Positions 2,141 through 12,653 of a DNA stretch of 19,329 bases are shown one piece after another; position 1 is the stretch's first letter, and every line of letters starts with the position of its first letter. Under the pieces are notes generated by a model. That model was not told the DNA's origin, searched no databases, and saw only the letters and a list, made by a program, of their open reading frames with translations. The stretch comes from a virus (taxonomy: Duplodnaviria; Heunggongvirae; Uroviricota; Caudoviricetes): positions 1 to 19,329 of the IMG/VR virus record IMGVR_UViG_2802429248_000011; one strand, written 5' to 3'. Position numbers and translations under genes: made by a program.

Positions 2141-2622
2141 AAACAGATTTCACGCTCAATCTCACGACGAGTCATGAGACCTTTCCATTGCTTACCGCCA
2201 GCATATGTCCAGCGACGTAGCTGATCACATGCGCCTTTGATATCGCCCTGGTTTATTTTGCGAAGAAGCGTCGATGTTCTGAAATTGCCAGCACCCACGT
2301 TGTAAACGAATGAGTAAAGAGCGCCGCGCGTTGTTTCCGGTATATCGACTTTGATGTACGGGTTAATTTGTCTGGCGACAGTGGCAAGGTCTTTATTCAA
2401 GAGTGCTTTGCATTCTGCTTTGGTATACGTTTTACCGAGCATGATGTCTTTTCCTGTATGCCCGTGACATACAGTCCATACACCAACAATATCTTTGTAT
2501 GGTATGTAGCTGACACCTTCCAGACCATCGTTACCACTTGGGCCAGTGATTAACACTGATGCTATAGCAATTGCTCCGCCACCAATAGCAGCAACAACGG
2601 CTTTTCGTAATGATGGAGGCAT
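2128..2622 (-). CDS. R: SAR endolysin (phage 21 R-type lysozyme)
   Basis: 164 aa. N-terminal Gly/Ala-rich SAR segment ([20 protein letters not shown]) and the Glu35/Asp44/Thr50 catalytic positions (..[22 protein letters not shown]..). Near-identical to the phage 21 / DLP12 lysozyme as recalled. Confidence 0.92.
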
Positions 2623-2837
2623 TATTCACCTCTCGCAGCCTTACGCCTGTCTTCTTTAATCTTGAAATAAAGATTTGTCAGATACGTCAGCAGGCCAAAA
2701 ACCAGGCTACCCAGCACACCGATTGCAGCCCACTGTGACGGAGTTACTTTATCGAGTAACTGCAATGCCCAGAAACCAGCATTACCCGCCGATGTGCCAT
2801 AGGCAACACCTGTTGTTAACTTATCCATTGATTTCAT
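2622..2837 (-). CDS. S: Pinholin (phage 21 S-type holin) with dual-start motif
   Basis: 71 aa beginning [26 protein letters not shown]... with two TM segments. The Met1-Lys-Ser-Met4 dual start is typical of S21 antiholin/holin. Its stop overlaps the R start. Confidence 0.9.
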
Positions 2838-3056
2838 ATCCTCACCCCGATGTACACGGATGGTGCAATATGTTTGAAAATATCGGAGTCTACGGGGTAG
2901 TTTTTACAGCACACGTTGTTCTCAACGGCGCTAAAAAAACATACACATTAAAAATGTGGTTAATTATTTTGAAAGAAAATCATATATTAATTAATAATAC
3001 GAGAAATGTTTTCATATTTAGTGTACTGTATACGGCCATTTATACAGGAAAAGCCT

Positions 3057-3227
3057 ATGTCAGAACGTAAAGACTCAAAATCACGCCGTAATTATCTCGT
3101 TAAATGTTCCTGCCCAAACTGCACCCAAGAGTCAGAACACAGTTTTTCAAGAGTACAAAAAGGTGCCCTTTTGATCTGCCCTCATTGCAACAAAGTATTC
3201 CAGACAAATCTTAAAGCTGTAGCCTGA
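3057..3227 (+). CDS. Small zinc-ribbon protein (two CxxC pairs), moron gene
   Basis: 56-aa ORF MSERKDSKSRRNYLVKCSCPNCTQESEHSFSRVQKGALLICPHCNKVFQTNLKAVA. AGGAAA Shine-Dalgarno 6 nt upstream; TTGAAA / TAATAA promoter-like hexamers at 2969-2997. Confidence 0.6.
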   Translation: MSERKDSKSRRNYLVKCSCPNCTQESEHSFSRVQKGALLICPHCNKVFQTNLKAVA

Positions 3228-3286
3228 TTGATTTTATTCGCAACAAGTATTTTTTATATTTTAATAATATATTTAAAGCAGATAAT

Positions 3287-3309
3287 AAAAAACCCGCCTG
3301 AGCGGGTTT
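3287..3309 (-). terminator. Intrinsic terminator (strong on minus strand, weak on plus)
   Basis: AAAAAACCCGC-CTGA-GCGGGTTT hairpin. The minus strand has a T-run after the stem, so it would end the cspB-like transcript; the plus strand is followed by TAATATT. Confidence 0.55.
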
Positions 3310-3590
3310 AATATTGTGGTGCTTTTTGTGAGAGTCATCCACTTACGCACTTTGTTTTGCTATGCCAGCAGTTAGCTTCTGCTGTAAAACTATTCATGCA
3401 GCAAACCTGCACTTCACCACAATGGTTAGCATACTTTTCCTGATTAAGTTATTACCAAATATGCTGGCCATTGTTTCATGTATTGGACCGCCTTACTCTT
3501 TATTAAAGAGATCCAATATTCACCACTCTGTCTGTATCTCCACTCAGGCATCAGCCTTCTTCGTTATCGTATACAGACAAACTATGAATT

Positions 3591-3806
3591 TTAATCATTA
3601 ATGATGACATTTGCTGCTGCAGGACCTTTAGCACCACTCTCTACAGAGAAGGTAACCTTTTGACCTTCAAATAAGGTTCGATAATTATCATTCTGAATCG
3701 CAGAAAAATGCACAAACACATCTTTACTACCATCAACAGGAGAAATAAAGCCGAAACCTTTATCAGCGTTAAACCATTTTACTAAACCAGTCATTTTATT
3801 TGACAT
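3591..3806 (-). CDS. cspB: Cold-shock protein, CspA family (CspB-like)
   Basis: 71 aa [67 protein letters not shown]...; canonical cold-shock-domain RNP motifs; long upstream untranslated region as in csp genes. Confidence 0.9.
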
Positions 3807-4105
3807 TCTACATTCCTTAACTTGAGCCTTTCGGCATAAATGGTTTGTATAACAGAAACGACTTCGTACTTAATTGGAGAGACTCAAAGAAGGAATAAGT
3901 GAATAACACCTGAAATGAGAACTGCTTTAGTAAACTACTTCGTATATCGTCTGTTCTTCAAACCGACGCAATCATTAACGCATAGTTGAACATATGAAGC
4001 AATGTTTATTTTAGACATCCAGCCATCTTCAACCCCATCAAAAAACTATAGCTTTCTTCAGGAACGTGTGTATAGTGCGCCAAGTTATCAGTATTAAGGA
4101 ATTTT

Positions 4106-4318
4106 TTGTCCCGTAAAATGACAGGAATTGTCAAAACCTTTGACTACAAAAGCGGCAAAGGTCTTATCATACCATCCGATGGCCGTATCGATGTCCAGCT
4201 GCACGTTTCTGCTCTCAATCTCCGCGATGCAGAAGAAATTACCACAGGATTACGCGTGGAATTTTGCCGAATCAATGGTCTACGTGGACCTTCAGCTGCC
4301 AATGTTTATCTTTCATGA
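4106..4318 (+). CDS. cspF: Cold-shock-domain protein, CspF/CspH-like
   Basis: 70 aa [70 protein letters not shown]. Divergent from the cspB-like gene, as in the Qin prophage arrangement. First codon is TTG with AGGA upstream. Confidence 0.85.
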
Positions 4319-4372
4319 GCTATATTAAAGCTTTTACTTTAAGCCCCATCGGATCACACATGGAGAGTTTTT

Positions 4373-4462
4373 ATGAATAACCCCGTCTGCCTTGATGACT
4401 GGTTGATTGGCTTTAAAAGCTTATGCTGTACTTTGGCCGTAATAGCTCTGCTAATAATATAA
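4373..4462 (+). CDS. Putative 29-aa hydrophobic peptide (speculative small protein)
   Basis: GGAGAG Shine-Dalgarno 8 nt upstream of the ATG; encodes [29 protein letters not shown]. Lies between the cspF-like gene and its terminator. Confidence 0.25.
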
Positions 4463-4611
4463 TAAGCAGACTCATTGTGTTTAGGGACATTGTACTGGAA
4501 GAAAACATTTTAAACATCAGGCAAATAACTAAGTCACCAGCTAAATAATAAGTTAACAGACATGGGTCCCGGGATGAGGTTCAACATCACCATTGCCCCA
4601 TTTAAAGCACA

Positions 4612-4637
4612 AAACCCGCTCATCAGCGGGTTTTCTA
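4612..4637 (+). terminator. Intrinsic terminator, plus strand
   Basis: AAACCCGC-TCATCA-GCGGGTTT followed by TTCTAATTTCTTT. Confidence 0.6.
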
Positions 4638-5049
4638 ATTTCTTTCTAAACATCAGATATACAAAGCCCATCATTGAGGGAATCTTATCCATATTTTTTG
4701 AAAAATGCAAGCATCACGTTGCCATCTTCATTGAAAAACCTTTATCGTGTTACTTTTATCAATTGCACTTCAGCATAGAGTTATCCCAGGCAGCACTTTA
4801 AAGACTTCTACATTACACACACCTTGTCTCCCCTTCTCGTCATATCTGCAAGACCGATATGCATGACGCAGTACATACGCTGAACTGCTTTATCCATCAG
4901 CATATTCTAGTGCTAAAGCGACTTCAGTAGCAGAAGCAAAATTCTGCTACTGTGCCAAACAGGAGTAAACGTCATTTTATGTAATGTTGATTGAGTGGTC
5001 ATAGTATCACCTCAATAACAGCTCTTCGCCCTATCATTGAAAGCATATC

Positions 5050-5058
5050 TGCTATAAT
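5050..5058 (+). promoter_or_regulatory. Extended -10 promoter element (TGcTATAAT)
   Basis: TGCTATAAT lies about 32 nt upstream of the ATG at 5090; no good -35 hexamer, consistent with an extended -10 promoter. Confidence 0.35.
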
Positions 5059-5089
5059 TAAAAAGCCACTTAACATCAGGACTTCAAAC

Positions 5090-5275
5090 ATGACTTCAAA
5101 TCAATCTGAAAACGAAATAGTTAATACTGTCAAAAAATATGCATCATGTGCTGACGATGCTTTGCAGGCAGGCAAAGAAAACGTTAAAGATAAATTTAGA
5201 AATTATCCACTGACTAGCGTGGTGGTCGCTCTAAGCATAGGGTTAACGCTTGGTTTTATTATTGGCAGAAAATAA
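5090..5275 (+). CDS. Small C-tail-anchored membrane protein (ElaB/YqjD/DUF883-like)
   Basis: 61 aa MTSNQSENEIVNTVKKYASCADDALQAGKENVKDKFRNYPLTSVVVALSIGLTLGFIIGRK. AGGA Shine-Dalgarno 8 nt upstream; C-terminal TM anchor ending in basic residues as in the DUF883 family. Confidence 0.55.
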   Translation: MTSNQSENEIVNTVKKYASCADDALQAGKENVKDKFRNYPLTSVVVALSIGLTLGFIIGRK

Positions 5276-5338
5276 TCTTAAGCCTCCCATAAGTCGTACA
5301 CAATCACATCTACCAATTAATGTTCCATTAGTAAAAAA

Positions 5339-5357
5339 CCACCTCCTGTGGAGGTGG
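5339..5357 (-). terminator. Intrinsic terminator (strong on minus strand, weak on plus)
   Basis: CCACCTCC-TGT-GGAGGTGG: perfect 8-bp stem, A6 on the plus side upstream (T6 on the minus strand after the stem), TTT on the plus side. Confidence 0.5.
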
Positions 5358-6403
5358 TTTAAGGATAGCAACAAAACACAACCTACTTTAAACGGCTATA
5401 TTCTGCTATATCTAAATAATAGGTTCTCTTTTATCATCCGGTGAAAAAGGGTTCAATGGTTGCCCCTCATCAGGACGCTCAACGGGCTCATCATCAGGCT
5501 TACGGTCATCAAAATCTGGATGTTCTGACATATTCCACCCTAGTATTTTTATGCAGGAAAGATTATTTACTCTTTCCGGTTGTCTTTTTTATTATCCTTA
5601 CCCTTACTATCCTCATTGTTTTTATTCCTGTCATGAGATTTTTCATTTGAATCACTTACATATAATGTATTCATGGGGACTCCAGTTTTTTAACAGCACA
5701 ATGCTGTATCTGTAATTATAGATGCAATTAATCATTATGGTATGTATGTTTCATGCACAAATCAGAAACGCATCTAGTGCTTTAATTAATATGGATTTTA
5801 TTGCTGTAGATTTACAAAAATTTTCATAATTAACCAGCAATATAAGACAAATATCTCATAACATGAGGGAAATCAAGCTCATTTAAAGCAATTTATAATT
5901 TTCATCCTACTATTTTCCCTACACTGCCAACACCAGTTTCGTCGCAACACTCTGACAAGACACCTATAAAATCAGTTTCGTTATCACCTTAATTTTCTTC
6001 ATGGGTAACAAACCGGTAATACATCGATAGCCTGATTGATGCACGTTACTGTTACCTCTTCCCTGCATCAGGATGGCTTCCCAAGATGATATGGTTAATC
6101 ACACTGGAACATTCACGCATAACCGTTTCCTTCATATCCTGCCGTTTTAGCATGTCTTTTCCCCTTCTTGTTAATATCAATGACTAACACAAATCTAAAA
6201 AAGCCAGCAATGTAAAAAAACTGCATTCACGGCAACCAGAATGGTTACCGTTCTGCACAAAGTTTATGTCCACAAAAAAACCACTCTGCGCGGCTTATTG
6301 ATATTTTCCACCGGTATGCATATAAGGCTCATCATTGGAAAACTCTTTGCACGTTTCCTTAGAAAATACAATCGTTATGTCGCCATCGTTCGGTGAAAAT
6401 CTT

Positions 6404-7156
6404 TTATCTTGTCACTTTTCTCAGTTGTGCTTCTGCATACGCTTCTTCCTGCCAGCACTTTGTTACCAGTTTATCAATGACGTCCGCATACCCCTTGTAC
6501 CACTGATAATCTGTCAGGTCCGGTACCAACTTCTGGACATGACGTCGTGCCAGTGTGGTCGGTAAACGACTAAACCTGTTTCCATTACAACGCCCACAAA
6601 TCTTATAAACCGGTACGCCATGAAGCCGGGTTCTTTTTTCATCCAGGACAATACCTTTACCCTTACACCCTCTGCACGCTGTGCTGACTTCGCCCTTACC
6701 ATGGCAATGCTGACATAGTTCCTTCCCCCATTCTTCCTTGATAACAGATTCCCCACTTCTGTAGTGTTTCACCACTTCGCGCAATACATTATGAAATCCC
6801 GTACCTGCACAATGTTCACAGCGAGCCTTACTTGCCGCAGACCTGGAATAATCAGCAAAGGCAAAATTCACAAGGTAAGGGATGATCTGTAACCGGGTTT
6901 CTTCACTCAATTTGTTCAATATCGGGTTATCCAGTGCCATCGCGTAATTGAGCAGACCTTCAATCGCAAACTGAGGGTTCTGAACACCAACTTTTGCCAG
7001 AAATAAGGCAAACCCAAGCGGTGCTTTCGACTGCACCATCCCCTGCGCAGCCATCACATCCGTAATTGTTAAACCACCAGAGCCTGTCGCCGGTGCGTCA
7101 TCGCTCAGTTTTGGTGATTTCGGGGAGTAATATTTCGGTAAGACTTCAAGGTTCAT
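6404..7156 (-). CDS. Q: Late-gene antiterminator Q (lambda Q family)
   Basis: Translation from ATG 7156 (GGAGA Shine-Dalgarno) begins MNLEVLPKYYSPKSPKLSDDAPATGSGGLTITDVMAAQGMVQSK..., closely paralleling the lambda Q N-terminus as recalled. Cys-rich zinc-binding pairs (CEHCAGTG, CQHCHGKG, CRGCKGKG, CGRCNGN). Longest ORF is 6404..7198. Confidence 0.88.
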   Translation of the reverse strand: MNLEVLPKYYSPKSPKLSDDAPATGSGGLTITDVMAAQGMVQSKAPLGFALFLAKVGVQNPQFAIEGLLNYAMALDNPILNKLSEETRLQIIPYLVNFAFADYSRSAASKARCEHCAGTGFHNVLREVVKHYRSGESVIKEEWGKELCQHCHGKGEVSTACRGCKGKGIVLDEKRTRLHGVPVYKICGRCNGNRFSRLPTTLARRHVQKLVPDLTDYQWYKGYADVIDKLVTKCWQEEAYAEAQLRKVTR

Positions 7157-7169
7157 GCTCGTTCTCCAC

Positions 7170-8165
7170 TTACGCCAGCACGCCAATTGCCAGCGCACGA
7201 TCGATAAAACGAAATATCAGCTTCAGCTGGGAGCCATACTTCTCTTCAAATGCCACGGTATCCGCATGCAGCTCGTCGTGATGCTTTCTGCACAAAGGCA
7301 ACACAAAGAGGTCATGCGCTTTTGTAGCCATTCCACCCTGACCGTGGCCTATCAGGTGGTGGGGATCATCAGCAGGCTTTCCACAACATGCACACGGCTG
7401 TGTCTTAACCCAGCGCGTGTACTTTTCGTTAACCCAGCGGCGACGTTTGGGGCGTAACATAAAAGACTCCGGCGACTCCGGATCCACTTTCAGCGCCAGC
7501 ACCTTTTTCGCTTTATCCTGGATAATGCTGGTGGCAGGAACCGAAGGCACAAGGTCACTTTCCCGGGTGACAGACGGCACAACAGGCTTCGGTAATCTCA
7601 GTGCCTTACGGGCTGCACTTTCCGGTAAGGCATCCGCCAGGTCATTACGAATCAGCCACCAGCACAGTTCCGGCATTGTCACAACGTGACTATCATCAAA
7701 ACCGAGATCCCGACGCACAACAGACAACACCCAACGGGCACAGTTATCCGTTGCCATTGATTCCAGCCGTTCCGTGAACTGATCGCGCAGCTGGTTATCG
7801 CAGTGCCAGCACAGACGGATTGCGCCCGGGGCGTGTCGCATTGTGGTCATGTTCTCGCTGTGCCAGTCGGAATGAGGCCACTGGCAGCCCTTTTCACGAA
7901 GTAACCAGCTTTCAAGACATTCCACGCCACCAGCACGACGGATCACTGCCTCATTGCGGAACACGGCCCGAACGGCAGGATCATCCGCCAGCGGTTGTGA
8001 TGCCGCCGGAACGGCACCACTGGCGAAAGATGAATAACGCTCCGGCTCAGGCTCCAGCAGGACACGCCCCTGCATAAACAGGGGCATCAGCTCTGAACCT
8101 GGCCTGAACAATACGATCCCCATACGCGGGGCAATTTCAGGGGTCAGCAGTGCTCTCACGGTCAC
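7170..8165 (-). CDS. DUF968-like protein with C-terminal HNH/zinc-finger-like Cys/His motif; start codon uncertain
   Basis: 331-aa ORF. C-terminal ...TQPCACCGKPADDPHHLIGHGQGGMATKAHDLFVLPLCRKHHDELH... resembles the DUF968 family found just upstream of Q in E. coli lambdoid prophages (memory-based). Several candidate starts. Confidence 0.7.
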   Translation of the reverse strand: MTVRALLTPEIAPRMGIVLFRPGSELMPLFMQGRVLLEPEPERYSSFASGAVPAASQPLADDPAVRAVFRNEAVIRRAGGVECLESWLLREKGCQWPHSDWHSENMTTMRHAPGAIRLCWHCDNQLRDQFTERLESMATDNCARWVLSVVRRDLGFDDSHVVTMPELCWWLIRNDLADALPESAARKALRLPKPVVPSVTRESDLVPSVPATSIIQDKAKKVLALKVDPESPESFMLRPKRRRWVNEKYTRWVKTQPCACCGKPADDPHHLIGHGQGGMATKAHDLFVLPLCRKHHDELHADTVAFEEKYGSQLKLIFRFIDRALAIGVLA

Positions 8166-8211
8166 CTCAGCGAACGGTATTGCATGAACGCAGAAGAAAA
8201 AAATTCAGCCA

Positions 8212-8469
8212 TCACGCAGTAAACTCCTTCACCAGCGTTTCAAACTGGCTTACCTGGCCTTCCAGTTCCGCCACGCAATCCACCAGCTCATCCACCGCCT
8301 TTTGTGTGCGGTGTTTTGCCTGCAGCAGATCACGCAGCGCCGGAGTAAGCTGCTTGCAGAGCGTATCCTTTGCCACGCTCGTTTTTTCCATCTGTTCAGC
8401 ACAACGAAGCATCTCCTGTGCCTGCCGACGAAGTTGTTCCGGTGAAACAGTGGTTGTTCTGTTATTCAA
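8212..8469 (-). CDS. Hypothetical small coiled-coil protein (85 aa)
   Basis: ORF MNNRTTTVSPEQLRRQAQEMLRCAEQMEK... whose TTG start overlaps the DnaB-like stop (TTGA), suggesting translational coupling; no recognised family. Confidence 0.45.
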   Translation of the reverse strand: MNNRTTTVSPEQLRRQAQEMLRCAEQMEKTSVAKDTLCKQLTPALRDLLQAKHRTQKAVDELVDCVAELEGQVSQFETLVKEFTA

Positions 8470-9866
8470 AATAAACGCTCCGTTTTACTGCCCGACATGC
8501 GTTTATTGCTGTATCTGCGCGGATTGCCCGGAGTCATGGGTGTGGAAAGAACCCGGGCACTCTCCTGGTCCACAGGCAGAAAATGTCCGTTATAAAAACG
8601 CCGGTAAATCGTCCCCAGAGAACCGTTACGTTGTTTCGTGATATTGATTTCTGCGATGCCCCTGGCCTGCGTATCCGGGTTGTACACTTCATCCCTGTAA
8701 AGCATCAGAATGATGTCTGCATCCGCCTCTATTTCTCCGGAATTTTTCAGGTCCGAGTTCATGGGGCGTTTATTGGGTCTGGATTCCACGCCGCGGGAGA
8801 GCTGGCTAAGAGCAATCAGCGGAAAACCGCCGGATTTTGCCAGGCTTTTAAGTCCCTTTGAGATTTCCCCCACCGCAAGGTCGTGACGCCCCGTGCTGCG
8901 GGTTTTAATCAGGCCGAGGTAATCGACCACCACCAGCGCCGTTTCCGGGTGTTTCATCCGGTGGTGCTTCGTGGTTGCACATATCTCATCAATGGTCAGG
9001 TTTGCCTGGTCCACCATCCAGATATTACGCCCCGTCATTCGTCCCACGCCCTGCGAGAAACGCGCCCAGTCTTCATCTTCAAAACGGGCAACAGACTTAA
9101 GACGTGATACCGGCATTCCTCCAGCCGCAGACACCATACGTTCACCAATCTGGATGTTCGACATCTCCATGGTGAACAGAAGCACACCATGCCCCTGCTC
9201 AGTCACCTTGTCGATGATGTCCAGCGCAAGTTCGGTTTTCCCCATCGAAGGACGGGCGGCAATGAATACCAGGTCTCCGGGCTCCATACCGCCCGTTTTT
9301 GCGTCCAGTTCATCAATACCGGTCATCAGCGCCCTGGATTTCTCCAGTCCCTGATTGCGGCATTCAACACGGTCGACCACTTCCGGAAGGACATCATCAA
9401 TGTGAACCGGCTGAATGACGCCCTTTCCTGTCGACAGTGTGACCATCATGTTCTGCGCATCCTTCAGAGCATCCTCGGCTGCTTCACAGGTATGCGCATC
9501 ACGTAAATTCTGTAATGCTTCAGTCAGTGTTTTTTCTGCATCGCGCAGTGCGGCATTTCGCCGCAGCGCTGCAACATAGTGCTCCAGTGAAGACTTCACC
9601 CAGGTTTTACGCCCGGTGTCGGTAATCACCGGGGCAAGTTCCGGCATCTCATTGCACAGCAGCACGGGGTCAATGACGCCGGATACGCGAGCCTGTCTGC
9701 AAATCCCCGCGTAAATATCCCTGTACTGACGCACGAAAAAGACATCCGCCGGAAGCGTGGCCAGAATATCCATCACTTCCGGATCAGCCCCACGCAGAAA
9801 AAACGCGCCAATCACGGCACCTTCCAGGTCATCGTTACGCCATGCCGGATTTGTCGTTTTTGTCAT
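8466..9866 (-). CDS. Replicative DNA helicase, DnaB-like
   Basis: 466 aa from ATG 9866 (ATGA overlap with the upstream DnaC-like stop). Walker A ...FIAARPSMGKTELAL... and DnaB C-terminal RecA-like domain motifs. Confidence 0.9.
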   Translation of the reverse strand: MTKTTNPAWRNDDLEGAVIGAFFLRGADPEVMDILATLPADVFFVRQYRDIYAGICRQARVSGVIDPVLLCNEMPELAPVITDTGRKTWVKSSLEHYVAALRRNAALRDAEKTLTEALQNLRDAHTCEAAEDALKDAQNMMVTLSTGKGVIQPVHIDDVLPEVVDRVECRNQGLEKSRALMTGIDELDAKTGGMEPGDLVFIAARPSMGKTELALDIIDKVTEQGHGVLLFTMEMSNIQIGERMVSAAGGMPVSRLKSVARFEDEDWARFSQGVGRMTGRNIWMVDQANLTIDEICATTKHHRMKHPETALVVVDYLGLIKTRSTGRHDLAVGEISKGLKSLAKSGGFPLIALSQLSRGVESRPNKRPMNSDLKNSGEIEADADIILMLYRDEVYNPDTQARGIAEINITKQRNGSLGTIYRRFYNGHFLPVDQESARVLSTPMTPGNPRRYSNKRMSGSKTERLF

Positions 9867-10772: not shown

Positions 10773-11582
10773 TCACCAGTTGAAGTTCGTTGAACCGTAG
10801 TCCTGCTCACTGAATCCCGAGATCGGGAGGCCGGTAGTTCGCCCACCTCCGGGAGCGGCTGGCTGTTGCCAAGATTCCTCGAAGTGACGATCGGGTCCAA
10901 AGAACGTCGCAGCCTGCTTCACGAACTGTGTGCCGATATTTCCGGTAGCTCGTACCCAGGCGGCATACCGCTTCACGCCATCAAGCATGGTCTCCGGTTT
11001 TATTCCCTCCCTGATACGGGCTTTCCAGGCTTTGAAGGCTGCTGACTTGGAATTGCCACCGGCACGTTTGGGATATTCCTGCCAGGCCTGTTCAAATTCC
11101 GGTGAATATTCCTGTCGGGCAGAACGCGCTGGTGCAGACGCGTCAGCGGATGCGCCAATAGTTGATTCATTGACTGGTTCTTTGACTGGTTCAAAAGAGT
11201 GACTGGTTCTGGGTGAATCTCCTGCACTACCCCCTAGTGCAACTCCTGCACCACCTGGTGAATTTGTTGCACTAGGTAGTGAATTATTTGCACTACCACC
11301 TAGTGAATCTTTTGCACCATCAAGACGAAGAAGATAAATATTGCTCGAGTTGCCTTTTTCACCTTTCCGGGAAACTTTTTTTACCAGTCCCGATTCACAA
11401 AGAGCCGTAATATGATTCATCACAGAACGTTTGCTAATCTCGCACTGATCAGCAATATGCTGATAGCTGGGCCAGCACTCGCCCTGATCGCTGGCATTAT
11501 CAGCCAGCTTAATCAGAACCAGTTTTCGCAATGGATTCCCCACACGAATTTTCATCGCTTTAACCATCAGCTCCATGCTCAT
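10773..11582 (-). CDS. Replication initiator (lambda O-like; N-terminal winged-HTH, low-complexity linker, C-terminal domain)
   Basis: 269 aa. GGGAGG Shine-Dalgarno before ATG 11582. Direct repeats with internal dyad symmetry (iterons) lie in the linker-coding part of the gene, as in lambda O/ori. Confidence 0.8.
   Translation of the reverse strand: MSMELMVKAMKIRVGNPLRKLVLIKLADNASDQGECWPSYQHIADQCEISKRSVMNHITALCESGLVKKVSRKGEKGNSSNIYLLRLDGAKDSLGGSANNSLPSATNSPGGAGVALGGSAGDSPRTSHSFEPVKEPVNESTIGASADASAPARSARQEYSPEFEQAWQEYPKRAGGNSKSAAFKAWKARIREGIKPETMLDGVKRYAAWVRATGNIGTQFVKQAATFFGPDRHFEESWQQPAAPGGGRTTGLPISGFSEQDYGSTNFNW
11223..11310. repeat. Origin-of-replication iterons (four ~20-22 bp repeats with internal dyad symmetry) inside the initiator gene
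   Basis: TGCACTACCCCCTAGTGCAA / TGCACCACCTGGTGAATT / TGCACTAGGTAGTGAATT / TGCACTACCACCTAGTGAAT in tandem. Adjacent at 11165-11215 are three copies of TGACTGGTTC. Confidence 0.7.
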
Positions 11583-11994: not shown

Positions 11995-12653
11995 GGGCGT
12001 ACCTCCCATTGATTACGGCGAAAAGCAGTGTGATTCAGGCTGGTTTCAGCCTCATGGAATGCTCCAATGCAGCTCTCGTAGTACCGCATTGTGCGTAGAC
12101 TTAACCCAAGCTGAAGCATCATCAGGCCATCAAGGGTGATGTAATAACCACGCAGGGAGTCACCATAGATGTGGTAAGTACCCGGTATGAAGTTGCGGGT
12201 AAAAAATTCGCGCGAGCAGTTCAGATACTCGATTTTGTCGACGATGTTCTGGTGCATGCGCTTAAAGTGGCAGGCAACATGCAGGGAGAAAATAACAGCT
12301 TTGCCGTTGACGACTTCGATTTTGAGGAATGGGGAAGTTGGGACTGTAGCCATGATGGCAGCCTCCTTGATCGGTGAAAAACTTCCACCACCGGAGCTGC
12401 GAAACTCATGGGTGGTGAACTGAACAGGGTTCGCAGTACCGGCGATCAAGGAAACCGGCGAGCCTTTCGGCTCCCCTGCCCAGCCCACCATAATTCTGGC
12501 GTGCGTGAGCGCAGACGATAAAAAAGACGCTGGCGCGTCGTATATCGCCTTGATCAATTCCGGGCTGCGACCCCCGGCACCCGCTTTATAAGGTGCTGGA
12601 ACAGTGTAACGTCCCGAAATTACAGAATCAATATTTTGGCTTGAAACATTCAT
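11991..12653 (-). CDS. Hypothetical protein with Gly/Ser/Pro/Ala-rich N-terminal region and folded C-terminal domain; start codon uncertain (open frame extends to 12887; strong internal Shine-Dalgarno + ATG at 12353)
   Basis: 897-nt open frame. The first in-frame ATG (12653) lacks a Shine-Dalgarno; an internal ATG at 12353 has AAGGAGG 8 nt upstream. C-terminal domain ...YYITLDGLMMLQLGLSLRTMRYYESCIGAF... is not confidently assignable. Confidence 0.5.
   Translation of the reverse strand: MNVSSQNIDSVISGRYTVPAPYKAGAGGRSPELIKAIYDAPASFLSSALTHARIMVGWAGEPKGSPVSLIAGTANPVQFTTHEFRSSGGGSFSPIKEAAIMATVPTSPFLKIEVVNGKAVIFSLHVACHFKRMHQNIVDKIEYLNCSREFFTRNFIPGTYHIYGDSLRGYYITLDGLMMLQLGLSLRTMRYYESCIGAFHEAETSLNHTAFRRNQWEVRP

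Follow-up and report, generated by a model that had tools for sequence, protein, structure and literature searches.

In Stx and other lambdoid phages, the interval between Q and the lysis genes serves as a slot for accessory genes, which holds stx genes, tRNAs and methyltransferases that are expressed by Q read-through. The class of elements to which the locus reported here is compared are the morons of lambdoid phages, such as HK97 gene 15 and lambda bor and lom (Cumby, Davidson & Maxwell 2012, PMC3594210). In the late region of the K-12 Qin prophage, furthermore, the small proteins YnfU, YnfQ/YmcF-like and YnfR are documented by ribosome profiling and tagging (Weaver et al. 2019, bioRxiv 10.1101/511675). 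Genes of the YnfU, YnfQ/YmcF-like and YnfR type also sit next door in relatives of the window, i.e. of the whole stretch of 19,329 nucleotides analysed here.

In this Qin-like lambdoid prophage of E. coli, DNA of low GC content has been inserted over some 1.3-1.5 kb (about 4800-6125/6320), and it holds a unit with two small open reading frames, ORF1 and ORF2, on the minus strand. With a probability of about one half, the unit is a moron-type small-protein cassette in the late region of the prophage. The features referred to below are:

4800-6125, no strand: lineage-restricted low-GC insertion carrying the unit (comparison with K-12 Qin, GC profile)
5738-5743, minus: candidate -35 hexamer ATACCA, weak, 3/6 match, 17-nt spacer, best at that spacing
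5715-5720, minus: candidate -10 hexamer TATAAT, perfect consensus without TG extension (sequence inspection)
5693-5707, minus: small 5'-proximal hairpin ACAGCA-uug-UGCUGU, -6 kcal/mol (folding)
5680-5683, minus: GGAG Shine-Dalgarno sequence of ORF1, 5 nt upstream of the ATG
5567-5674, minus: ORF1, 35 aa, Lys/Asn/Asp-rich, GRAVY -2.51, pI 8.1, three hydrophobic residues, coding status uncertain
5556-5577, minus: 7-bp hairpin enclosing the ORF1 stop codon, -9.1 kcal/mol, without U-tract (folding)
5412-5531, minus: ORF2, 39 aa, acidic (net charge -8, pI 4.2), eight prolines, most likely a genuine CDS (codon usage, periodicity)
5364-5412, minus: long hairpin of 19 bp with six G.U pairs, between the ORF2 stop codon and the terminator (folding)
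5333-5360, minus: intrinsic terminator AAACCACCUCC-aca-GGAGGUGGUUU followed by UUU, -17 kcal/mol, U-tract on the minus strand only
5090-5275, plus: convergent gene of 61 aa, tail-anchored, ElaB/DUF883-like by name only (phrog_11629, E = 2e-45)

A lineage-restricted insertion between Q and the lysis genes

The insertion site is bordered by the Q antiterminator gene and the late promoter on one side and by cspF, cspB and the lysis genes on the other, and the unit, which lies within the Q-dependent late operon, is on the minus strand like Q and the lysis genes. The segment 4800-6320 is missing from K-12 Qin and from other Qin-like prophages, in which the cspF side joins Q directly; positions 6125-6320 represent the part common to other lambdoid Q-downstream regions. 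The left edge of the insertion is marked by what remains of a second 3' end of Q (4727-4799), which is a diverged direct repeat (75%) of 6389-6461, the latter copy overlapping the intact Q gene just outside the right edge. The GC content amounts to 0.316-0.380 over 5001-6000 versus 0.47-0.56 over 6501-9500, where Q and the early genes are located. The adjoining csp region is likewise of low GC (0.36-0.41); the whole Q-to-lysis interval is a low-GC patchwork, and the GC contrast is therefore one with the phage core and not with the immediate neighbours.

The insertion segment is present at about 99% identity in 40 of the 5426 complete E. coli genomes, and further in two phage records, 15 IMG/VR contigs and four metagenome contigs, with no occurrence among 185,579 species-representative genomes. 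Its carriers are prophages found in STEC O121 and O103 as well as in varied isolates from animals. A 70-bp methyltransferase fragment detected by tblastn at 6052-6120 within the insertion implies that the slot held such cargo earlier. Searches by tblastn with the CX08 methyltransferase, the UMNK88 methylase and the neighbours of both gave nothing over either ORF, and a decayed larger gene underlying them was rejected as a candidate.

On the plus strand, the convergent 61-aa gene is preceded by an extended -10 element (TGcTATAAT, 5050-5058). It shares the inter-gene hairpins with the unit, and its distribution is exactly the same as that of ORF2. The odds are even that the unit is the core of a moron-type cassette made up of horizontally acquired extra DNA. 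The lineage-restricted insertion, the position in the late operon and the convergent membrane-protein gene all went unmentioned in the preliminary description of this DNA.

Candidate promoter and 3' hairpins of the unit

The consensus TATAAT on which that description based a minus-strand promoter is found at 5720-5715 and represents the best sigma-70-like candidate on the minus strand from 6330 to 5560. The putative promoter does not exceed chance, since its -35 element matches at three of six positions, a consensus promoter scan did not call the ATACCA/TATAAT site, and the TATAAT count in the module (4) lies within that of shuffles (2.4 +/- 1.6). Of the compact minus-strand unit as originally proposed, the anatomy and a terminator oriented for the minus strand are retained, while the promoter is reduced to a lone -10 hexamer in DNA of 32% GC. 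The GGAG at 5683-5680 is indeed located 5 nt ahead of the ATG at 5674, and the perfect -10 hexamer sits about 34 nt ahead of this SD-ATG with the 5' hairpin in between. This hairpin would begin 1-3 nt away from the inferred start of transcription, and the Shine-Dalgarno region behind it is rich in A and unpaired.

At the opposite end of the unit, the strong minus-strand terminator suspected before is confirmed with its GC core at 5357-5339. The full terminator hairpin (5360-5336) comprises 11 bp and an ACA loop and is followed by a T-run of six residues, including three that are paired in the stem. The first base of the long hairpin is at the same time the last base of the ORF2 stop codon. Owing to its six G.U pairs this hairpin forms in minus-strand RNA only, and the region harboring both hairpins (5330-5415) folds with -36.7 kcal/mol on the minus strand versus -22.1 kcal/mol on the plus strand. 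For the 3' 147 nt (5334-5480) a folding z of -5.8 is obtained, which amounts to -3.6 when the terminator is left out. The terminator contains one polymorphism, at 5358, by which an A-U pair becomes G-U; as the copies are nearly identical and this is the sole change in the 3' module, a covariation test is precluded. The terminator module recurs (91.5%, 47 bp) in another island, where it closes an N-6 DNA methylase gene, and because it is common to an unrelated island the terminator could be the relic of an earlier gene.

Coding signals of ORF1 and ORF2

Both reading frames are present as previously described, ORF1 at 5674-5567 (MNTLYVSDSNEKSHDRNKNNEDSKGKDNKKDNRKE) and ORF2 at 5531-5412 (MSEHPDFDDRKPDDEPVERPDEGQPLNPFSPDDKREPII). 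The ORF2 product contains a recurring P-D-(D/E) motif, has a GRAVY of -1.73 with seven hydrophobic residues, and is predicted by AlphaFold2 as essentially all coil. Its N-terminal DFDD resembles the C-terminal tip of SSB; as the motif is not C-terminal in ORF2, this resemblance was set aside. A hydrophobic transmembrane segment as in type I toxins or prophage membrane peptides is absent from both products (GRAVY -2.51 for ORF1 and -1.73 for ORF2). Upstream of ORF2 a canonical 4-mer Shine-Dalgarno sequence is missing and merely AGGGTGGA is found at 5541-5534.

The codon log-odds of ORF2 amount to +0.20 per codon, which is the top of the six frames and comparable to essD and cspB, with GC contents at the three codon positions of 0.69/0.36/0.28. 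The z-score of these log-odds against plain shuffles was dropped as uninformative, since such shuffles contain stop codons and any open frame beats them, and a periodicity test conditioned on an open frame was used instead. The periodicity of ORF2 (chi2 29.4) was equalled by none of 1000 shuffles; for six control ORFs the same test gave P = 0.08-0.66. Phase 0 holds all seven GAT, 13 of 15 GA and eight of 11 CC occurrences. In an ORF-blind scan the highest periodicity peak coincides exactly with ORF2, and in the mostly coding 19.3-kb window it ranks third (99.45th percentile). The codon periodicity of ORF2 and the strand-specific 3' structure are the features that exceed chance, unlike ORF length or the promoter: ORFs of at least 35 aa with ATG and Shine-Dalgarno sequence occur 0.3 times per strand in shuffles, so that length alone is unremarkable, and the filling of the interval by two ORFs has P ~0.015, a neighbouring plus-strand stretch being filled even more. 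Low-complexity, trinucleotide-like sequence can also yield strong periodicity. As judged from these intrinsic signals, ORF2 is most likely a true gene, and its 39-aa product would be disordered, rich in proline and strongly acidic.

For ORF1 the codon log-odds are -0.45 per codon, similar to those of spurious ORFs nearby, and the three-base periodicity reaches P = 0.011 against shuffles, z ~3.8 in the ORF-blind scan and the 91.6th percentile of the window. One natural frameshift allele of ORF1 is observed (P0041). ORF1 may encode a second small hydrophilic peptide or may merely be a translated or untranslated leader. The suggestion of small disordered proteins made in the preliminary description is hence upheld for ORF2 by codon log-odds, periodicity and the coil model, and carries over only faintly to ORF1.

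Both ORFs are strict orphans. For ORF2, a word-seeded search of 5.8 billion clusters (with the natural 46-aa version as query) and an exhaustive HMMER search of 1.84 billion representatives retrieved nothing beyond the single allele. The same allele or nothing was also returned by megablast and blastn against E. coli genomes and phages, by tblastn against phages and plasmids, by a degenerate back-translated ORF2 pattern in genome and viral collections, and by searches that started from the 61-aa neighbour gene, both in collections of viruses, genomes and metagenomes and among proteins. Pfam, PHROGs, NCBIfam, PADLOC and PDB gave zero matches to ORF2, and in protein-family libraries ORF1 found nothing beyond a phrog match at E = 0.36. 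Comparative tests are consequently powerless, and so is dN/dS with only three in-ORF polymorphisms among 18 copies, all three of which change an amino acid. Both ORFs are predicted by ab initio gene callers on more than 1000 contigs, PGAP annotates neither in any of the 40 RefSeq genomes, and a search for literature and expression data yielded no paper that names the two peptides or the two phage records and no transcriptome or Ribo-seq data set of carrier strains.

Interpretation and comparison with known systems

In its anatomy the unit resembles a short mRNA (about 375 nt) and comprises, in this order, a candidate sigma-70 promoter, a 5' hairpin, ORF1 with its Shine-Dalgarno sequence, ORF2, the 19-bp hairpin and the strong terminator. 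In the lysogen, transcripts from the local promoter, or those leaking past the first late terminator (6296-6278), would stop at the tandem hairpins, and as a consequence the downstream lysis genes are proposed to stay silent. After induction, Q-modified polymerase is proposed to read through, so that the ORFs would be part of the late transcript as well. In a more elaborate version, ORF2 would be of recent origin (de novo or through extremely fast evolution) and would give rise in the lysogen, from its own promoter, to a polyanionic, proline-rich and disordered peptide of 39 aa. By mimicking charge or serving as a decoy, this peptide would bind a basic protein of the host or the phage in an anti-defence or host-modulating role, and the G.U-rich stop-codon hairpin would control mRNA stability or processing; this version must be regarded as a long shot. 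The binding of a host or phage protein by the acidic peptide is, as a function of ORF2, a guess.

The unit could alternatively be non-functional filler, i.e. the ORFs would have arisen by accident in mosaic DNA of high AT content, which was carried along with the 61-aa gene or by the recombination event, and the terminator would be a relic or would serve the plus-strand gene and the insulation of the late operon. This is unlikely, but to be taken seriously, as the ORFs are strict orphans without detectable constraint or PGAP annotation, their lengths and the promoter lie within chance, frameshift alleles occur, and the interval is a patchwork of joints consisting of the Q remnant, the 70-bp methyltransferase fragment and the terminator shared with another island. 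Filler does not account well, however, for a periodicity peak that ranks third in 19.3 kb and lies exactly on ORF2, for codon usage placing the frame of ORF2 first of six, or for a minus-strand-specific hairpin starting precisely at the ORF2 stop codon; moreover, the U-tract is on the wrong side for the plus-strand gene. It is rather improbable that the ORFs are real but lack a promoter of their own, thus being late accessory genes reached by Q-modified read-through instead of lysogen-expressed morons. The unit is found on the Q and lysis strand downstream of the late-promoter and terminator module, and its local promoter has a poor -35 element and is within chance. Acquired AT-rich DNA of this kind is, in addition, commonly silenced by H-NS. 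On the other hand, a strong sense terminator like the one right behind ORF2 is required by an autonomous unit and would be superfluous for a purely Q-driven gene, and a perfect -10 hexamer with the 5' hairpin precedes the SD-ATG at a distance of about 34 nt.

A structured small RNA had been offered beforehand as the alternative to proteins, and for the body of the unit this is not supported: z ranges from about -1.2 to +1.6 across 5400-5760, no Rfam family matches, and strong structure is confined to the 3' 80-150 nt, whereas the ORF bodies are unstructured and mRNA-like. Rfam 15 covariance models over 4800-6450 gave no hit at the gathering threshold (best 12-21 bits versus cut-offs of 45-130) and no family match even at E <= 5. 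That a non-coding RNA is nevertheless the functional product, either as the transcript of about 375 nt or as a 3'-end sRNA made of the long hairpin and the terminator, with the ORFs being irrelevant, is very unlikely. It would agree with the strand-specific structure of the 3' 147 nt (z = -5.8), and the succession of a structured module, a terminator hairpin and a U-tail resembles the 3' module of Hfq-dependent and 3'-end-derived sRNAs; ordinary mRNA 3' ends have the same feature, so it does not discriminate. Where the homologous 3' module occurs elsewhere, it merely terminates a protein gene as a tandem terminator. GGA motifs of the CsrA type are not enriched (seven observed versus 6.1 expected), and a CsrA sponge was rejected as well. 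Scarcely credible is the plus-strand ORF at 5456-5650 (64 aa, hydrophobic C-terminal half, AAGGG Shine-Dalgarno) as the real gene with ORF1 and ORF2 as its antisense shadows. No other ORF in the stretch is as long (P ~0.06 in shuffles), and it has an SD-like AAGG 5 nt ahead of its ATG, is membrane-protein-like with a GRAVY of +0.82, and inherits periodicity (P = 0.013). However, gene callers never emitted it on more than 1000 contigs with the allele, zero family matches were found, and its codon log-odds (-0.22) are below those of the ORF2 frame in the shared stretch. It begins right after the hairpins without a promoter or a plus-strand terminator of its own, contains a terminator-like plus-strand hairpin inside, and is in exact codon-register antisense to ORF1, as is typical for a shadow ORF; on codon usage, gene calls and family searches it was judged an unlikely gene.

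If ORF2 is translated, the accessory-gene slot of lambdoid prophages would gain another micro-protein of restricted lineage. ORF2 would then also exemplify cleanly an orphan peptide that, for want of homologues, is detectable by intrinsic signals only, namely codon periodicity and strand-specific mRNA architecture. Since the carrier prophages reside in STEC O121 and O103 and in animal isolates, a lysogen-expressed peptide could affect host fitness. In practical terms, the unit is a low-cost candidate for small-protein validation.

In order to compare the unit with the described systems, the morons (PMC3594210) are considered first. Like these, the unit is extra DNA with respect to close relatives and of atypical GC, and it is short, delimited by a promoter-like site and its own intrinsic terminator, and sense-oriented in the late operon. 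Unlike these, its predicted products are two tiny hydrophilic orphan ORFs and not a membrane or surface protein, and its promoter is a candidate. By its sequence anatomy the architecture fits the published moron description. With YnfU, YnfQ and YnfR the ORFs share the prophage type, the Q-to-lysis neighbourhood, a size of at most 50 aa and the fate of being missed by standard annotation, but there is no sequence similarity, ORF1 and ORF2 are known from their sequence alone, and the insertion is missing in K-12. As in the accessory-gene slot of Stx phages, the unit follows the Q-dependent late promoter and precedes the holin gene, the cargo being an orphan small-ORF unit and a convergent 61-aa gene in place of a toxin. 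In the UMNK88-type genomic island (L004), the tandem terminator behind the N-6 DNA methylase gene matches the unit at 91.5% over 47 bp that include the terminator hairpin; both loci have two hairpins, which are oriented alike with respect to the gene ahead of them. This gene is, however, unrelated, and the first hairpin has, in the window, been remodelled into a 19-bp G.U-rich helix abutting the ORF2 stop codon. Nothing in these comparisons suggests a new kind of system; the proposed cassette belongs with the ordinary add-on genes of phages.

Architecture and 3' structure of the minus-strand unit

The preliminary description of 5339-5720 placed a promoter, a Shine-Dalgarno (SD) motif, two tiny ORFs and a terminator on the minus strand, and reading this strand over 5100-6000 followed by re-derivation of the features by script recovers all of them in place, with both peptide sequences matching exactly.

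Features of the unit and its antisense ORF
5720-5715, minus: TATAAT; candidate -35 ATACCA at 17-nt spacing, a 3/6 match and the best available, without TG extension
5683-5680, minus: GGAG SD motif, 5 nt ahead of ATG 5674
5674-5567, minus: ORF1, 35 aa
5531-5412, minus: ORF2, 39 aa; degenerate SD only, AGGGTGGA
5412-5364, minus: long hairpin, 19 pairs including 6 G.U, starting at the last base of the ORF2 stop codon
5360-5336, minus: full terminator AAACCACCUCC-aca-GGAGGUGGUUU followed by a U-run, -17 kcal/mol; GC-rich core 5357-5339
5456-5650, plus: 64-aa ORF antisense to ORF1 and ORF2, C-terminal half hydrophobic

A consensus promoter scan does not report the TATAAT site, and the surrounding low-GC module holds four TATAAT hexamers versus 2.4 +/- 1.6 in shuffles, which also yield 0.3 ORFs of at least 35 aa with ATG and SD per strand. 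Of the 306 nt separating promoter and hairpins, ORF1 and ORF2 occupy 228 (P ~0.015 versus shuffles), a coverage exceeded by the ORF fill of an adjacent plus-strand stretch without gene features. Given the shuffle counts, the 3/6 -35 element and this better-filled neighbouring stretch, ORF size and promoter hexamer are therefore each, taken alone, within chance.

The entire putative transcript folds with z = -3.75 against shuffles, and the structure signal is restricted to the 3' end: the ORF bodies are unstructured (z ~ -1.2 to +1.6 over 5400-5760 in a sliding scan), while z is -3.6 for 5365-5480, which excludes the terminator, and -5.8 for 5334-5480, which includes it. Jointly the two hairpins reach -36.7 kcal/mol on the minus strand versus -22.1 on the plus strand; the U-tract exists on the minus strand only, and the long hairpin is confined to minus-strand RNA because 6 of its 19 pairs are G.U. 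The unit matches no Rfam family and is not enriched in GGA motifs. Elsewhere in the window, Rfam matches at gathering score are a cspA-type thermoregulator leader upstream of cspB (3526-3967, minus, 158 bits) and, in the early region, a C4 antisense RNA (12408-12495, minus, 85 bits) adjoining the Hfq-binding sRNA IsrK (12520-12596, minus, 57.6 bits).

Fifteen other E. coli genomes carry a 91.5%-identical copy of the 47-bp stretch 5330-5376 (2501-2547 of the UMNK88-type island locus L004), where the same two-hairpin module lies directly 3' of an N-6 DNA methylase gene as a tandem terminator; the island also carries ThiF-like, nucleotidyltransferase, DUF1281 and ArdC genes. The hairpins appear to be a portable 3'-end module.

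Coding signals and orphan status of the ORFs

ORF2 probably encodes a real peptide, acidic and disordered; the coding status of ORF1 is uncertain. With codon log-odds trained on 3,500 codons from the long genes of the window, the reading frame of ORF2 outscores the other five at +0.20 bits per codon (GC1/GC2/GC3 0.69/0.36/0.28); for comparison, essD scores +0.27, cspB +0.08 and the 61-aa neighbouring gene +0.03, and ORF1, at -0.45, resembles nearby spurious ORFs. Three-base periodicity, which low-complexity sequence inflates and which is insensitive to frame and strand, reaches chi2 29.4 in ORF2, matched in 0 of 1000 shuffles constrained to an open frame; the corresponding P values are 0.011 for ORF1 and 0.08-0.66 for six control ORFs of the module. 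Frame was assigned from the open frame together with codon log-odds. Codon phase 0 of ORF2 holds 7/7 GAT, 13/15 GA and 8/11 CC, and a P-D-(D/E) motif has four in-frame copies that use three different Pro codons.

An ORF-blind scan of 2600-7300 has its global maximum (z ~6.4) at 5405-5536, exactly ORF2, compared with ~4.8 for the 61-aa gene, ~4 for cspB, ~3.9 for cspF and ~3.8 for ORF1. ORF2 ranks third among the periodicity peaks of the full 19.3-kb window (99.45th percentile; ORF1, 91.6th). Two other peaks stand out, one in AT-rich DNA upstream of the unit (5885-6016, z 3.8), where ORFs have only 23-34 aa, and the strongest of the window (11212-11328, chi2 52 at ~11212), within a 269-aa minus-strand ORF (10773-11582).

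ORF2 has a net charge of -8, a pI of 4.2, 8 Pro and a GRAVY of -1.7 (ORF1: pI 8.1, GRAVY -2.5). Single-sequence AlphaFold2 predicts practically no secondary structure for it (pTM 0.13), which is consistent with disorder and no proof of it. Where the preliminary description offered small disordered proteins or a structured small RNA, the former thus gains from periodicity, codon log-odds and the coil-like model for ORF2 and stays uncertain for ORF1, and the latter is not supported for the body of the unit.

In a 15-billion-protein collection both peptides are found solely as Escherichia hypothetical proteins and single-substitution variants. No further relative of ORF2 emerged from a word-seeded search of 5.8 billion clusters or from HMMER run exhaustively against 1.84 billion representatives; tblastn finds ORF2 only in the HannyBb and PhiR63_1 phage records and in no plasmid, and, among phages, ORF1 in these two records only. 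Pfam, NCBIfam and PADLOC give zero matches for either ORF, the PDB none for ORF2, and PHROGs none for ORF2 and a best E = 0.36 for ORF1. PGAP annotates neither in any of 40 RefSeq genomes; both are called hypothetical proteins in HannyBb, where almost all small ORFs are called, and in PhiR63_1.

Prophage setting, origin and distribution of the insertion

The window represents a lambdoid prophage of the Qin type from E. coli. According to the RefSeq annotation of the identical region in STEC299, the unit lies between the antiterminator (Q) gene ydfT/quuQ (~6404-7156, minus) and cspF, cspB, ynfU and the lysis cassette essD-ydfR-rrrQ-rzpQ, on the strand of Q and the lysis genes. It thus belongs to the Q-dependent late operon, with a terminator (6296-6278) and a late-promoter-like region upstream of it.

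Features of the insertion and of the remnant Q copy
5090-5275, plus: 61-aa gene, convergent; extended -10 TGcTATAAT at 5050-5058; C-terminal membrane anchor
5002-4913, minus: 29-aa ORF MTTQSTLHKMTFTPVWHSSRILLLLLKSL; strong SD GAGGTGAT; called by both phage annotators
4742-4799: second, K-12-like Q 3'-end remnant, 58 nt
4710-4705 (TTGCAT) and 4687-4682 (TAAGAT): the remnant copy's own promoter-like site
4634-4611: the remnant copy's terminator hairpin

The 61-aa gene matches phrog_11629 (E = 2e-45) and is named DUF883 in one UniRef entry but has no Pfam match; it shares with ORF2 both the orphan status and the narrow range, the two always occurring together with identical distributions. The insertion may hold a third small gene in the 29-aa ORF; the stretch around it, 4820-5011, unannotated by PGAP, shows three-base periodicity (z 3-4), and its folding z-scores are below zero on either strand.

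K-12 Qin aligns to 3900-4799 and again to 6320-6900, and its positions 2259-2399 (the Q 3' end and the region downstream) match two window sites; a repeat search pairs 4727-4799 with 6389-6461 as diverged direct repeats (75%). The order is thus intact Q with its own late-promoter/terminator module, ~1.5 kb of extra DNA, then the Q remnant. Since the late-control region is duplicated (4604-4799 versus 6278-6461), the remnant copy lying 1.66 kb downstream of intact Q, the prophage may possess two late-promoter modules in series. On the right side, 6125-6320 is common to other lambdoid Q-downstream regions, and 6052-6120 preserves ~70 bp (77-83% identity) of the DNA methyltransferase gene that immediately follows Q in strain CX08, a trace of cargo that the slot held before. 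The unique part, ~4800-6050, has the lowest GC of the window (0.32-0.38).

IMG/VR contig UViG_2802429244_000003 matches 4400-6700 at 100% identity (2.3 kb), against ~4.4% divergence in most of the other copies. These differences cluster at 4600-4700, at 6000-6100 (32-bp indel) and within Q, which points to additional recombination joints at these places. Of 5426 complete E. coli genomes, 40 carry the segment, in very diverse hosts and serotypes (all at least 95% identical, mostly at least 99%); it is also found in 2 phage records, 15 IMG/VR contigs and 4 metagenome contigs, and is missing from 185,579 species-representative genomes queried by protein handle and degenerate ORF2 pattern. Across 18 aligned copies, 5300-5780 has five variable sites, and comparative tests of coding or RNA structure are therefore powerless; the three in-ORF variants all change amino acids (ORF2 E36D and ORF1 S13T, both conservative; the third is S23G). 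Two odd-length variants, seen once each and possibly assembly errors, are frameshift alleles, P0041 shifting in an A-run at ORF1 codons 29-30 and P0042 at the ORF2 C-terminus.

Interpretation and known kinds

The unit is read here, with a probability of about 0.5, as a cassette for small proteins on the strand of the late operon. In the lysogen its tandem 3' hairpins would stop transcription that starts locally or leaks through; after induction, Q-modified polymerase would pass them, and the ORFs would therefore be expressed late as well. Promoter activity, translation and function are what we infer for the unit.

Weighing the recurrent terminator and the chance-level ORF size against the coding signal of ORF2, mosaic filler devoid of function, with the terminator as a relic, is an unlikely reading, if one to be taken seriously. 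Real ORFs that lack a promoter of their own and are expressed only late, for which the 3/6 -35 element speaks and the intact TATAAT does not, are improbable. A non-coding or 3'-derived RNA would suit the structured 3' end and not the unstructured ORF bodies, and is very unlikely. The 64-aa plus-strand ORF opposes ORF1 in exact codon register; ab initio gene prediction yields ORF1 and ORF2 on >1000 contigs and the longer antisense ORF never, so it is probably a shadow ORF, and that it is the real gene is hardly credible.

Morons, phage add-on genes, are described as extra DNA of atypical GC with their own promoter and terminator (PMC3594210). The unit agrees in three of these four sequence features (extra DNA, atypical GC, terminator); as to the promoter, it has a perfect TATAAT but a 3/6 -35 element and is missed by the consensus scan. 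Orphan small ORFs in an accessory slot of lambdoid prophages are an already familiar category, and validated small proteins such as YnfU are already known from the same Qin region of K-12 (bioRxiv 10.1101/511675).
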